A DNA stretch of 36,995 nucleotides from a virus (taxonomy: Duplodnaviria > Caudoviricetes). Each line of letters opens with the position of its first letter. Within the stretch, counting starts at the first letter, position 1. Both the position numbers and the translations under genes were made by a program. Below are positions 10,882 through 15,222 of this stretch, piece after piece. The notes under the pieces are model-generated. The model did no database searches. It saw only the letters and a program-made list of their open reading frames with translations, and was not told where the DNA came from. The stretch lies in the IMG/VR virus record IMGVR_UViG_3300025635_000011, positions 1 through 36,995 of that record; one strand, written 5' to 3'.

Positions 10882-11125
10882 TTTTCTCCCTTTCGATGTG
10901 CTTATAGTAGGCATCCATGGCCTTCTCTGTCACCATTGTGTCCATTATTGGCATAATGTCAACATCTCCCAGGTAGACAGCCTCAATATAAGGGTCTGCC
11001 CATTCGTATTCACTATTCGACTTTGAATCGTACCGCCAATGGTACTCAAAAGCTATTGTCACGTCCACAGGTGTGCTCATATTCGGTGGTGTCCATTCAA
11101 AAATATAGGTGTTTAATACGTTCAT
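10868..11125 (-). CDS. Hypothetical early protein
   Basis: GAGGT SD; ATGA overlap. Confidence 0.65.
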   Translation of the reverse strand: MNVLNTYIFEWTPPNMSTPVDVTIAFEYHWRYDSKSNSEYEWADPYIEAVYLGDVDIMPIMDTMVTEKAMDAYYKHIEREKNEQY

Positions 11126-11406
11126 GCTTGCACCTCTTTAGCCATTAAACGATTAAGACAATCACACAATTCATCCAGGCTATAAGATTGAAACACAATC
11201 CCACCCCCATAAGATTTATTATGGTATTTGCGTCCACCGGCTTTATTGGCAAGCTTACAGGCCATGGCGTAACGCTCTGACAGCCCGTATCCAATACCCT
11301 TGTCAGACCCGTGTACGTCAAGGGACAGAAAATGGCACACATAACGAGGGTTTCCGTTTACGTCATTACGCACACGTTCAAAAGCATTACTATCGATTGT
11401 TTTCAT
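11122..11406 (-). CDS. Conserved hypothetical early protein (NDVNGNPRYV...GGGIVFQSY)
   Basis: AAGGA SD; protein-like motif content. Confidence 0.75.
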   Translation of the reverse strand: MKTIDSNAFERVRNDVNGNPRYVCHFLSLDVHGSDKGIGYGLSERYAMACKLANKAGGRKYHNKSYGGGIVFQSYSLDELCDCLNRLMAKEVQA

Positions 11407-11778: not shown

Positions 11779-12029
11779 TACTGGTCTAAAGTCTTTAGAG
11801 GCCACAATGCGCCATTAGACATTTCGACATAGTGTGTGCCATGCACAAACCCTATGCGACACATTCTAGCCTTGATCGCTCGTGCATAGGCATAGGATCG
11901 CTTGTGGTCTGAGTCGCTCAGGTACAGACTCGGGTCTGTGGCATGGTTATAAGCAGAGCACAGGCCAATAATGGTCGTCCCTGCTTTCCACATAGACCCG
12001 TTGGATTTGTAGACAACAAACTGTTTCAT
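11778..12029 (-). CDS. Hypothetical early protein
   Basis: GAGGGA SD; packing. Confidence 0.65.
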   Translation of the reverse strand: MKQFVVYKSNGSMWKAGTTIIGLCSAYNHATDPSLYLSDSDHKRSYAYARAIKARMCRIGFVHGTHYVEMSNGALWPLKTLDQ

Positions 12030-12036
12030 GCTTCCC

Positions 12037-12132
12037 TCACTTGGTTAAAACGTCAAAATACGCCAGAGCAGCCATTGTCAGGCAGAGGCCGATTGCGATT
12101 GCTAGTATGTAGTCCAGGATTGATGATTTCAT
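12037..12132 (-). CDS. Small single-helix membrane protein (31 aa, not in the ORF track)
   Basis: Manual translation MKSSILDYILAIAIGLCLTMAALAYFDVLTK; fills the intergenic gap; no clear SD. Confidence 0.6.
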   Translation of the reverse strand: MKSSILDYILAIAIGLCLTMAALAYFDVLTK

Positions 12133-12152
12133 GTGCGTGTTTTTGTAAAAAA

Positions 12153-12362
12153 TTAAACTGACAACGACAAGCCGGAAATGCGATAGCACTGCCCGCTGGG
12201 CAATTCAATGTCAACGACACCAAACGGATGCACGTCAATGATTTTTCCCTCAACCATGCGACCAAATAAAGATGTCTTAATGGTCTGGCCGATATGGCGC
12301 TTTTGACGGTTTGCGGCCACCGTGGCAAAAGTTTTCGCTTGAGTTTGTGATGTGTATTTCAT
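12153..12362 (-). CDS. Hypothetical early protein (small beta-rich)
   Basis: GAGGT SD. Confidence 0.65.
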   Translation of the reverse strand: MKYTSQTQAKTFATVAANRQKRHIGQTIKTSLFGRMVEGKIIDVHPFGVVDIELPSGQCYRISGLSLSV

Positions 12363-12369
12363 GGTGACC

Positions 12370-12582
12370 TCAAAGGTTAGACATTACAGTTGTGAATTTT
12401 ACATCGACAGAATCAATGAGGCGTGTCCAGTAGGACAACTCATCGAACACTCGGTCAAAGTTGGCAGACGACAACCCGATAGGTGTCTGCTCGCCTCCGA
12501 TCATCAGGGAACCTGTGACAGTGAATTCTATAGGATCGAGAGTGTCCCGATCCAGGGTTGTGCAGAATGTGAGTGTGTTCAT
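12370..12582 (-). CDS. Hypothetical protein, first gene of the early arm
   Basis: AAGGA SD before MNTLTF. Confidence 0.65.
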   Translation of the reverse strand: MNTLTFCTTLDRDTLDPIEFTVTGSLMIGGEQTPIGLSSANFDRVFDELSYWTRLIDSVDVKFTTVMSNL

Positions 12583-12630
12583 GGTGCTGATCCTTTGCAA
12601 GTTAATGTCCGTTGCGGACGTTATTTATAT

Positions 12631-12647
12631 TGCACGTACCATGCCAA
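12631..12647 (-). promoter_or_regulatory. Sigma54-type -24/-12 element facing the early genes
   Basis: Minus strand TTGGCATGGTACGTGCA (GG-N10-GC). Confidence 0.55.
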
Positions 12648-12694
12648 CCCGCTTTTATTGAACCTTTAGGTTTATGTTTTAGATTTTAGTTAAT

Positions 12695-12723
12695 ACTTTA
12701 TTGTCACAGTTTATAATCTGCAA
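12695..12723 (-). promoter_or_regulatory. Candidate sigma70 early promoter
   Basis: TTGCAG-N17-TAAAGT on the minus strand. Confidence 0.4.
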
Positions 12724-12745
12724 TACTTTTGATGTATAAATTTAC

Positions 12746-12834
12746 TGTGCTTTTATGGTGCATTTTATGGCACGCTTCTTGCCCTATGCACCATTATAGG
12801 ACAATGCACAAGGTTAGTGCACCATTATTGTGCT
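12746..12834. promoter_or_regulatory. Four NtrC-like binding sites
   Basis: TGTGCTTTTATGGTGCA (12746), TGCACCATTATAGGACA (12787), TGCACAAGGTTAGTGCA (12805), TGCACCATTATTGTGCT (12818) versus consensus TGCACCA-N3-TGGTGCA. Confidence 0.65.
12768..12782 (+). promoter_or_regulatory. Consensus sigma54 -24/-12 element
   Basis: TGGCACGCTTCTTGC matches TGGCACG-N4-TTGC exactly. Confidence 0.7.
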
Positions 12835-12929
12835 AGATACTTTAGATGTTAACTATCTTGACTGGATTGTTAGGGTAAACCCCTAGTACCCTTTAGAAGC
12901 ACCTTCACCGACCCTCACCTGCACCCAAT

Positions 12930-12944
12930 TGAGAATGATTCTCA
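12930..12944. promoter_or_regulatory. Fur-box-like 7-1-7 palindrome
   Basis: TGAGAAT-G-ATTCTCA in AT-rich flanks; second degenerate copy TGAGAAT-CC-ATTATCA at 12977-12992. Confidence 0.7.
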
Positions 12945-12951
12945 TTTACTA

Positions 12952-12967
12952 TTGACCCACTGGTCAG
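12952..12967. promoter_or_regulatory. RutR/TetR-family-like operator
   Basis: TTGACCCACTGGTCAG versus TTGACCANNTGGTCAA (2 mismatches). Confidence 0.45.
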
Positions 12968-13012
12968 TAACCTTATTGAGAATCCATTATCATTAGCGTT
13001 AGTGAGCACTTA

Positions 13013-13039
13013 CTAGCACTCTGGTGACGTGAGTGCTAA
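13013..13039. promoter_or_regulatory. CIRCE element (HrcA operator)
   Basis: CTAGCACTC-TGGTGACGT-GAGTGCTAA: 17 of 18 positions match TTAGCACTC-N9-GAGTGCTAA, with the exact 9-bp spacer. Confidence 0.85.
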
Positions 13040-13211
13040 CTAACTTAGTTACTGACTAGTGAGTCATTAGTGGCCAGGTGAGTGAGTGCTTACATAGGGG
13101 GGAGGGTCTTCTCTGGAGTGTTTACTTTTGCGGGAGCCCCTAAAGCACACAAAAAAGAGTATACAAAAGTAACCAAATAGTACATTTAATTGGGGACAGA
13201 TGAAGATAACG

Positions 13212-13224
13212 TAAGTTATTGAAA
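13212..13224 (-). promoter_or_regulatory. IHF-like binding site
   Basis: Minus strand TTTCAATAACTTA versus WATCAANNNNTTR (1 mismatch). Confidence 0.4.
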
Positions 13225-13375
13225 GATAAAGACAAATAGACACAGAAGACATAATTTAACATAATATTGTAAAAGGAGACTATGAAGCGGCAGACGTGCA
13301 CCCTTAATGGGGACTATAAAGTGAAGCCTTAATCAGTAAAAAGACAATAAATCTTAAACTTTTGTCATAAAAAGC

Positions 13376-13404
13376 TTGACAAGTGCATAAAAGTATGCTA
13401 AAGT
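13376..13404 (+). promoter_or_regulatory. Sigma70 promoter for the packaging/structural arm
   Basis: TTGACA-N17-TAAAGT with extended -10 TG. Confidence 0.75.
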
Positions 13405-13523
13405 ATCTTTAGAGTATACTTAAAAGCATTAAAGTATACTTAAATGTACTCTAATACGTTAAAGTATACATTAATGTTAAATATTAATTATTTATCTATA
13501 CATTAATGTATACATTAAAGTAT
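13390..13523. repeat. AT-rich AAAGTAT(AC)/ACATTAATGT repeat and palindrome cluster
   Basis: A(A/G)AGTAT at 13390, 13400, 13411, 13431, 13461, 13517; palindrome TATACATTAATGTATA at 13497-13512. Confidence 0.75.
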
Positions 13524-13571
13524 AAGGGCACTGTAAGAATTTTTGTCTTAACATCTCCTTGAAGGGTAAAG

Positions 13572-13979
13572 ATGGAAACGGAACCAAAGAAACGTGGTCG
13601 TGGAAGACCCAAGAAGGGTGAGATTGTCGCCCTTAAGAAAAAGAATACTGGTGTCATAGGTCGTCCCAAGGGTGATACGGCTATCATCAATGAGTACAAA
13701 CTCAGGATGCTGAATTCACCCAAGAGCGCAAAGGTGCTTGAAGCTATCTATGATGCTGCCTTGGATAACGAACATAAGAATCAAGCTGCTGCCTGGAAGT
13801 TGATTGTCGATAGGATTGTTCCTGTCTCAGCTTTTGAGGCTTCAAAGCAGGGCGGTAGTACCCCAAGCATCAGTATCAACATTTCTGGTCTCCAAAGCCC
13901 TTCTGTTGGCCTTGATGAGCCTATTGAGATGGTAGAAGATGTCACGGATGTGGAAATAAAAGATTATGACCAGTCTTAA
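13572..13979 (+). CDS. Putative terminase small subunit with AT-hook-like motifs
   Basis: Directly upstream of and overlapping TerL; KKRGRGRPKK and GRPKG. Confidence 0.7.
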   Translation: METEPKKRGRGRPKKGEIVALKKKNTGVIGRPKGDTAIINEYKLRMLNSPKSAKVLEAIYDAALDNEHKNQAAAWKLIVDRIVPVSAFEASKQGGSTPSISINISGLQSPSVGLDEPIEMVEDVTDVEIKDYDQS

Positions 13980-15222
13980 TTTCCAACTCCTGAAGTGGCA
14001 ACAGGAAGTATTTGGGTCTAAGAAACGATTCAAGGTGGTTGCAGCAGGTCGTCGATGCGGTAAGTCCAGGTTGTCTGCTGTTACCTTGTTGATTGAGGGT
14101 TTGAATTGTCCTGACGGTTCAGCGGTGATGTATATCGCTCCTACGCTGGGACAGGCTAGGTCGATTATCTGGGACTTGCTCCACGAGCTGGGTAGGCCGG
14201 TGATTAAGTCCAGTCACGTGAACAACCTTGAGATCACGTTGGTAAACGGACGAAAGATTCTCATCCGTGGGGCTGATAATCCTGATTCCTTGCGTGGTAT
14301 GTCTCTGACTTATGTGGTCTTGGACGAGTGTGCATTCGTTAAGCAAGATGTTTGGGAAAAGATTATCCGAGCTTCTTTGTCTGACAAAAAAGGTAGAGCC
14401 TTGTTTATATCCACTCCTTCTGGGAGGAACTGGTTCTACGATGTGTTTAAGTTAGGGCAGGAAGAGGATGAGGAGTGGAAGAGCTGGCACTTTACCACCA
14501 AGGACAATGAAACCATTGATCCGAAGGAGATTGAGGCTGCTCAGAAGACTCTCAGTTCTTTTGCCTTTAAGCAGGAATACCTGAGTTCCTTCGATACCGC
14601 AGGAGCTGACGTATTCAAGGAAGAGTGGTTCAAGGAAGCAAAGGAGCCTCAGTTTGGGGCTTACTATGTTGCTGTGGACTTGGCTGGGTTTGAGGATGTA
14701 GCCAAGAATGCTGGAGCAGCCAAGAAGAAACTTGATGAGACTGCTATTGCTATTGTTAAGTTATTGGATAACGGTGATTGGTGGGTTCATAGCATTGAGC
14801 ATGGTAGATGGGACATTAGACAGACTGCTGTCAATATTCTAAAAGCTATCAGAGACTTTCAACCGAGTGCTATCGGTATTGAGCGAGGAGCATTGAAGAA
14901 TGCAGTGCTTCCTTATCTTAACGACTTGATGAGAAAGAACAATATCTATGCCCATATACACGATCTTACTCACGGAAACAAAAAGAAAGTGGATCGAGTT
15001 ATCTGGTCACTGCAAGGACGCATGGAGCACGGTCGAGTTAGCTTCAATGAGAATGAAGATTGGACTGAGTTTAGGGATCAACTCGTCATGTTCCCTACCA
15101 ATGGTGTGCATGATGACTTAGTGGATGCACTGAGTTATGTGGACCAACTAGCTGTAGCCAACTATAACGCTGACTACGAAGAAGATGAGTTTGAGATTCT
15201 TGACCCGATAGCAGGATATTAA
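13966..15222 (+). CDS. terL: Terminase large subunit
   Basis: Walker A AGRRCGKS, LRG, Walker B VVLDE, motif III STP; nuclease VAVDLA, GIE, HDDLVDA. Confidence 0.96.
   Translation: MTSLNFQLLKWQQEVFGSKKRFKVVAAGRRCGKSRLSAVTLLIEGLNCPDGSAVMYIAPTLGQARSIIWDLLHELGRPVIKSSHVNNLEITLVNGRKILIRGADNPDSLRGMSLTYVVLDECAFVKQDVWEKIIRASLSDKKGRALFISTPSGRNWFYDVFKLGQEEDEEWKSWHFTTKDNETIDPKEIEAAQKTLSSFAFKQEYLSSFDTAGADVFKEEWFKEAKEPQFGAYYVAVDLAGFEDVAKNAGAAKKKLDETAIAIVKLLDNGDWWVHSIEHGRWDIRQTAVNILKAIRDFQPSAIGIERGALKNAVLPYLNDLMRKNNIYAHIHDLTHGNKKKVDRVIWSLQGRMEHGRVSFNENEDWTEFRDQLVMFPTNGVHDDLVDALSYVDQLAVANYNADYEEDEFEILDPIAGY

Follow-up and report, generated by a model that had tools for sequence, protein, structure and literature searches.

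Interchangeable host-type binding sites densely fill a slot at the probable genome ends in an uncultured phage and its relatives

The phage DNA analysed here, hereafter the window (36,995 nt, positions 1-36,995 of IMGVR_UViG_3300025635_000011, treated as a whole phage contig), carries at 12631-13094 an array of what are, judging from their sequences, likely binding sites for host-type proteins, with many unrelated regulons represented side by side. What relatives share is a compact slot at the likely genome ends, closely packed with sites, and it is because this slot is kept while its contents are swapped that we favour, at slightly under an even chance, a reading in which the array would be an identity-blind coat of host proteins anchoring and shielding the ends of the genome.

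Two gene arms diverge from 12600-13570. The minus-strand arm encodes small early ORFs, a primase/helicase, a T7-type polymerase, an exonuclease, a thymidylate synthase and a reductase, while the plus-strand arm encodes the terminase, portal, capsid, tail and lysin genes. The early/replication arm starts with a 70-aa ORF that matches no family (12370..12582, minus strand), and another early ORF (11122-11406, minus strand) matches Pfam Phage_TreK (E 7e-21), a staphylococcal-phage terminal-repeat-encoded protein. On the other side, a sigma70-type promoter with an extended -10 upstream of terS (13376..13404, plus strand) is likely the late promoter, and the stretch from there to terS (13404-13531) consists of AT-rich overlapping palindromes and 24-nt repeats, which makes it a candidate origin or terminase-binding region. 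Scans of the phage ORFs, 52 against PHROGs and 26 against Pfam, revealed neither an RNA polymerase nor a regulator, a negative limited by the many small early ORFs without a family. This agrees with the initial annotation, which had seen no recognizable cognate regulator in the phage, and the idea of a phage-encoded regulator for the array repeats, for which the same two databases gave no match, was rejected with the same proviso about the small early ORFs. Cultured relatives are remote (27-30% identity for TerL, up to 34% for the capsid and up to 51% for the primase) and no family name was therefore assigned; the region 12000-14500 has no DNA similarity match among 50,697 phage records, and the 6 runs in which half or more of the sampled words occur all come from freshwater metagenomes, 3 of which may be where this DNA originated. 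Two other readings were discarded. The 127-nt overlap between the ends of the window falls within the ribonucleotide reductase gene and is taken to be an assembly overlap rather than the terminal repeat, and a search of Rfam for RNA elements gave 5 weak microRNA matches, far under the gathering score and all outside the array.

Consensus scans recovered every element that the initial annotation had listed in 12631-13094, with coordinates confirmed, and its expectation of a motif density above background was borne out. With a 15-pattern panel, the stretch gave 13 matches of 6 kinds, whereas 1000 dinucleotide-shuffled versions averaged 0.2 and never exceeded 3, and the best of the other 464-nt windows of the genome reached at most 2. 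The best matches in the whole genome to the sigma54, NtrC, Fur, RutR and CIRCE consensus all lie inside the array. General consensus motifs account for 11 of the 13 array matches and a TetR-type pattern tuned on these phages for the other 2; since 6 of the 15 panel patterns were tuned in this way (SdhR, PhaR, NrdR, a 14-nt palindrome, the TetR-type box and a second GntR-type box), the family counts given below are inflated. The names and consensus sequences used for sigma54, NtrC, Fur, CIRCE, DnaA, parS, LexA, IHF, NrdR, SdhR and PhaR are those in general use; the DnaA, parS, LexA and IHF sites, which occur in relatives, are named by consensus. That the sites lie nearly back to back, as had been claimed, holds for the right-hand part of the array (block B, 12920-13094), where they cover 135 of 175 nt, but not for the whole stretch (248/464 nt), in which 12648-12745 is a gap of 74% AT; coverage of the left-hand part (block A, 12631-12897) is 113/267 nt. 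In a helical phasing test, the centre-to-centre spacings between sites peaked at 18, 20, 22 and 30 nt.

Block B opens with a 19-bp Fur-type box (12928..12946), assigned by consensus match and host context, followed by a TetR-type palindrome (12951..12968, the earlier 'RutR-like' box) and by a second, Fur-family-type box (12975..12993) that has a 28-nt match (89%) in a host locus (L357) and may belong to another Fur-family protein. Next comes a CIRCE, the HrcA operator, matching at 17/18 positions (13013..13039) and assigned by consensus and host use, and around it are three copies of a 12-mer that had been left unnamed and that fits the published SlmA site. The Escherichia coli site is reported as a 12-bp consensus with tolerated positions (PMC3020112), and two of the three copies in the window (13002..13013 and 13082..13093) differ from it only at tolerated positions; the remaining copy (13029..13040) has one mismatch and overlaps a CIRCE arm. 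A short palindrome at 13037..13051 recurs with 0-1 mismatch in six relatives (L003, L007, L008, L012, L014 and L026), and a second TetR-type palindrome (13051..13068) was recognized by pattern match. Near the right edge of block A lies a palindrome with a 5-nt spacer (12871..12885), the 4-nt-spacer form of which is present in 22/87 phages and enriched in host genomes.

Block A is, from its sequence layout, likely an early promoter dependent on sigma54 with NtrC enhancers. A -24/-12 element on the minus strand (12631..12646) points towards the first early ORF, about 50 nt ahead of its start codon, and a 9-bp hairpin (12603..12623) falls where the 5' end of the early transcript is predicted. Upstream of the element, a spacer of 74% AT without panel sites (12648..12745) separates it from four NtrC-type sites at 12746, 12787, 12805 and 12818 (12746..12834), 100-190 nt away, which is within the range of about 100-200 nt for such enhancers. 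Three of the four sites announced by the initial annotation are strong, matching 14/17 positions in 3/5 host glnA upstream regions (shuffle maximum 12-13), while that at 12746 is weak, its 12/17 to host glnA promoters being no higher than the shuffle maximum. A second sigma54 element (12768..12782, plus strand) matches the consensus and points away from the early genes, as do 33/81 of the sigma54 panel matches; it agrees at 13/17 and 14/17 positions with two of the 5 host glnA promoters. The same layout of a sigma54 element with upstream NtrC-type sites is repeated in 7 TerL-anchored relatives (L008, L028, L034, L036, L072, L075 and L078), and a sigma54 site is present in 31/34 phages with NtrC-type sites vs 25/53 without. 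In other relatives, a sigma70-type promoter was seen by eye at the place of the early promoter; this may be because rpoN, found in 3/5 of the host-family genomes searched, is missing from the other two. In L058, L060, L063, L073 and L080, the early promoter has, by eye, a sigma54-like -24 half, a sigma70-like -10 and an IHF-type site upstream. Capture of a whole host promoter was considered and rejected, since matches extend over only 21-45 nt in 14/120 genomes (one genome unscored), and because no long host-promoter segment was found the array appears to be built of site-length pieces. A known parallel to this arrangement is glnAp2, an NtrC-activated sigma54 promoter. It resembles block A in its -24/-12 element, its tandem NtrC-type sites 100-190 nt upstream and its AT-rich spacer. 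Unlike glnAp2, however, block A lies on a lytic phage, ahead of the first early gene, and is rebuilt from site-length pieces. No sigma54/NtrC early promoter in a phage was found in a literature search of mostly open-access main texts.

The relatives of TerL in genome bins (17 loci) come from mixed taxa, including Luteolibacter (76%) and Burkholderiaceae (72%), so that bins alone do not name the host. We infer a Burkholderiaceae host, and the host tests cover this one family, that of genome G001. There, CIRCE, NtrC, sigma54, Fur, SdhR and PhaR forms are used before fitting genes, in accord with the earlier statement that the consensus sequences belong to host regulons, which was supported for the first four before or beside fitting Burkholderiaceae genes. 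The CIRCE core is found in 47/61 genomes of the family, and its reversed control in 2, with examples before groES and an rpoH-type gene; the inverted repeat of the array, with 9-bp arms around a 9-nt spacer and 17/18 positions matching, has a counterpart used before chaperone genes in the host lineage, as expected of an HrcA operator. The SdhR-type pattern occurs in 42/61 genomes (control 4) and precedes mdh, icd, glcB, aceA and a GntR gene (icd, glcB and aceA being named by eye), and the PhaR-type pattern occurs in 9/31 (control 1), 2 of the 9 before phasin. For Fur, two host contexts were checked, one beside a binding protein and the other between a Fur-family gene and a TonB receptor (L357). 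The 14-nt palindrome has 47 host sites vs 11 for the control, the window copy having one more spacer base, and it is a recurrent host intergenic motif (L279-L292). The NrdR-type exact pattern is present in 2/61 host-family genomes (control 6), and a 1-mismatch site lies before nrdA in G001. The RutR label did not survive: RutR is over the cut-off in 0/5 host-family genomes, and the phage-derived TetR-type pattern occurs in 5/31 genomes vs 11 for the control, so this operator identity was rejected. As regards SlmA, the gene is present in 5/5 host-family genomes, but the 12-mer has 68 sites on host chromosomes vs 116 for the control over 61 genomes, and exceeds the control only in some 2-Mb genomes (6 vs 0 in G001, one of the six being on its phage contig, and 3 vs 0 in G039 and G057). 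In four 2-Mb genomes of the host family (L313-L316), it is kept about 160 nt ahead of the start of coxB, the gene for subunit II of cytochrome c oxidase, and in L317, L319 and L323 it lies inside priA-like ORFs. The sites in the window differ from those of E. coli in being on phage DNA, in tandem and not enriched family-wide in the host chromosomes searched.

Contig depth and contig ends point to a direct terminal repeat of about 400 bp that likely spans 12902..13305, its right edge (~13300) being approximate. In run X3, contig depth goes from 112.5 to 228.6 (12949-13271) and back to 119.5, with side pieces at the borders below 8, and in run X2 from 28.5 to 56.8 (12960-13421) and then 35.9; the doubling rests on per-contig depth in these 2 of 7 runs, X1 and X4 having given long contigs and X5-X7 being fragmented. 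A conserved anchor (12898..12918, plus strand) likely contains, at ~12902, the physical end of the terminase arm, a point that at the early end corresponds to the inner border of the repeat. Contigs start within 1 nt of the equivalent base in 3/13 cases (L018, L047 and L064), where 13 is the number of distinct contigs stopping at most 420 nt left of the G-run described below after four loci cut at the 300-nt flank were dropped because their cut does not mark the end of a contig. On the right, a third conserved anchor (13296..13316, plus strand) is the candidate edge of the repeat, and 1/10 contigs stopping at most 700 nt right of the G-run (L139) ends inside it. Among metagenome loci, many of them not family members, neither the 8 truncated on the left nor those truncated on the right include one ending at an anchor, and in a further set of 11 matches 0/11 supported a terminus. 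Between these anchors, the array is closed by a family-wide G-run element (13095..13160, plus strand), which is likely a packaging or end-processing signal. If the repeat holds, block B would occupy the tip of the terminase end and would recur at the early end, 210-390 nt in from the terminus and followed there by block A. With the repeat present twice, the Fur, SlmA, CIRCE and TetR-type sites of the right-hand half would likely be carried by both ends of the genome. The initial annotation had placed the array at the leading end: depth and contig starts support its location at a genome end, and that the early end would be the one to enter first is presumed by analogy with T7 and pac phages.

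To see what relatives keep, the best 80 of 433 TerL relatives were retained and further loci added, giving 145 loci with the G-run element (including repeats of the same contig), 126 with enough flank and 87 after dereplication, the window included. Over these 87 phages, block B holds 21.7 panel matches per kb and block A 13.4. The two non-coding blocks that adjoin them have 1.6 and 0.1, shuffled sequences give 0.2-0.4, and the sites stop sharply at the G-run. The number of phages in which each kind is present in A or B, the members being related so that these are not independent events, is 56 for sigma54, 56 for DnaA, 44 for SlmA, 39 for the TetR-type box, 34 for NtrC, 32 for Fur, 25 for SdhR, 22 for the 14-nt palindrome, 19 for LexA, 13 for parS, 12 for NrdR, 10 for IHF, 9 for PhaR, 7 for CIRCE and 3 for the second GntR-type box. 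The idea that relatives would keep the motifs proved wrong, since they keep the slot and swap its contents. Among the 37 phages with TerL in hand, the shared fraction of site kinds averages 0.46 (0.09-1.0) for the 131 pairs with TerL at least 95% identical and 0.21 for the 535 pairs below that. Block B has only DnaA boxes in L028, L030 and L034, mostly sigma54 sites in L052, and NrdR and SlmA sites in L013, L033 and L035. The types of A and B, which lie on either side of the terminus anchor, assort independently and recombine there. In run X3, a minor variant (depth 7.7) gains at 12946-12949 a PhaR-type module of 33 nt that separates the Fur box from the TetR-type box. Panel sites are scarce or lacking in some members (none in L048, one or two in L119, L159, L210 and L238). 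The distance from the G-run to terL is 400-700 nt longer than in the window in L011, L015, L027, L034, L038 and L064, which suggests an inserted gene near terS. More distant relatives, examined by eye, still show the G-run element at 50% TerL identity (L258, about 1870-2000; L262, about 180-430), with a parS-like and an SlmA-like site, respectively, on its terS side rather than on the early side, and at 66-67% (L250, 1-950; L251, 1430-1950) with a different left neighbourhood, tandem LexA-like boxes preceding it in L250 and a Fur-like box in L251.

How might such a slot work? To our knowledge, the pulling of entering DNA by host DNA-binding proteins is a model with no dedicated sequence. In the explanation that we tentatively place first, entering DNA would be coated over its first few hundred bases by host proteins, which would retain it in the cell and delay motors that degrade from the ends until early expression is driven by host RNA polymerase, likely from the sigma54/NtrC-type promoter of the left half. 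The identity of the binders would matter little, and their number and closeness would matter. Binding, anchoring and shielding by such a coat are predicted from the sites themselves, and the presence in the family site set of the chromosome-cycle proteins DnaA, ParB and SlmA is counted in its favour, as are the sigma54 matches that do not face the early genes. The right-hand array is not readily explained by early regulation because it is too far from the promoter, too variable and likely duplicated at the other end. A precedent for an effect of density comes from RecBCD, which is reported to run past single bound proteins without pausing and to halt for ~9.5 s at five in tandem, with a pause time linear in array size and arrays finally cleared (10.1101/142224). 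Density rather than identity would thus slow a RecBCD-like motor, and a coat would buy seconds, not immunity. Counting against the coat are the ~200 nt without sites that lie outside the array at the early end, the sparse members of the family, the lack of host enrichment of the SlmA-type 12-mer and an end placed by 3/13 contig starts and by depth in 2 of 7 runs. A more detailed version is possible, though clearly short of an even chance: an interchangeable host-operator cassette in the terminal repeat would dress both ends in any sequence-specific proteins available in the host, ratchet entry and stall end-attacking motors or sensors, with early transcription gated by the nitrogen-starvation activator.

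Most of the array targets are repressors, and their titration would plausibly help the phage, which also fits the idea of a multicopy decoy, in which replicating sites would soak up host repressors and cell-cycle proteins, derepress chaperone, iron, dNTP, SOS and TCA genes and block host replication initiation and division. We regard this as rather unlikely. In its favour, host copies of the sites lie before groES and the rpoH-type gene (HrcA), before mdh, icd, glcB and aceA (SdhR), before phasin (PhaR), before nrdA (NrdR) and at a TonB receptor (Fur family), and, in cells whose multicopy plasmid carries SlmA sites in tandem, mild overproduction of SlmA is reported to block division (PMC3573117). 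However, no target is kept, the commonest kinds being present in 56/87 phages and CIRCE in 7/87, and near-identical phages differ. A decoy needs no fixed place, yet the sites end sharply at the G-run, and sigma54 and NtrC are activators. Moreover, abundant regulators such as Fur would hardly be titrated by one or two sites per genome.

The layout of the left half raises the further possibility that the whole array would be no coat at all but a sensor of host state, tuning early transcription by nitrogen, iron, heat and DNA-damage signals. The geometry of the sigma54 promoter, the association of its element with NtrC-type sites and, in other relatives, the sigma70-type promoter at the same place, with rpoN in only part of the host-family genomes, all favour this, and phi29 is reported to use host Spo0A sites in a similar way (PMC2731898). 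Nevertheless, the 280-450 nt by which block B precedes the early promoter exceed the reach of occlusion, and no promoter was found in block B; its second copy would sit at the other end, far from the early genes, and neither the identity nor the position of sites is conserved. We therefore accept sensing for the block A promoter and consider it improbable for the whole array.

T5 offers a close parallel. There, 8 DnaA boxes are reported to lie near the inner edge of the T5 terminal repeat, and an in silico model has membrane-bound DnaA stopping injection, a role in entry that is proposed there rather than shown (10.1101/866236). The T5 injection stop region resembles the array in being non-coding, repeat-rich, near the inner edge of the repeat and provided with host-protein sites, but it involves one host protein, a fixed number and spacing of sites, a 10-kb repeat with pre-early genes and a two-step injection, whereas the present family has ~15 kinds of site, swapped between relatives, and a ~400-bp repeat without genes; the PHROGs and Pfam scans, of 52 and 26 phage ORFs respectively, gave no match to A1 or A2. 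That DnaA, ParB and SlmA sites would similarly pause injection, attach the DNA to the membrane or the nucleoid, or serve as a host-primed origin for the first round of replication is the least probable reading and very doubtful: DnaA boxes in 56/87 phages, parS in 13/87 and an array that also straddles the inner edge of the repeat speak for it, but the window's own array has no DnaA box and no parS, the boxes of relatives (0 to 7) are not fixed in number and spacing as the eight of T5 are, and the phage encodes its own primase/helicase and polymerase. The coat, decoy, sensor and T5-like readings are not mutually exclusive.

Host sites on lytic phage DNA are thus already known, in T5 and phi29, with one or two proteins each and in fixed places. 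In phi29 and Nf, which like the present phage are lytic with a linear genome, sites for host proteins (of ParB type and for a global regulator) lie near promoters and origins, and Spo0A boxes and parS bring together two proteins in fixed places for one joint purpose, spore entrapment (PMC2731898). The array differs in packing many unrelated regulons together without conserving any one target, and no interchangeable multi-regulon array at phage termini was found in a literature search of mostly open-access main texts.

How the first bases of a phage are held and survive nucleases before any phage protein is made is an old open question. If the array does coat the ends with host proteins, entry aid and counter-defence would be encoded purely in DNA, with no phage protein involved. 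The array offers a clonable candidate of 175-460 bp and, because its 87 natural variants separate site identity from density, coat, decoy and sensor can be told apart. The host lineage of an uncultured phage can also be read from its set of sites, and the onset of the lytic cycle would be tied to nitrogen starvation if the early promoter is indeed of the sigma54/NtrC type.
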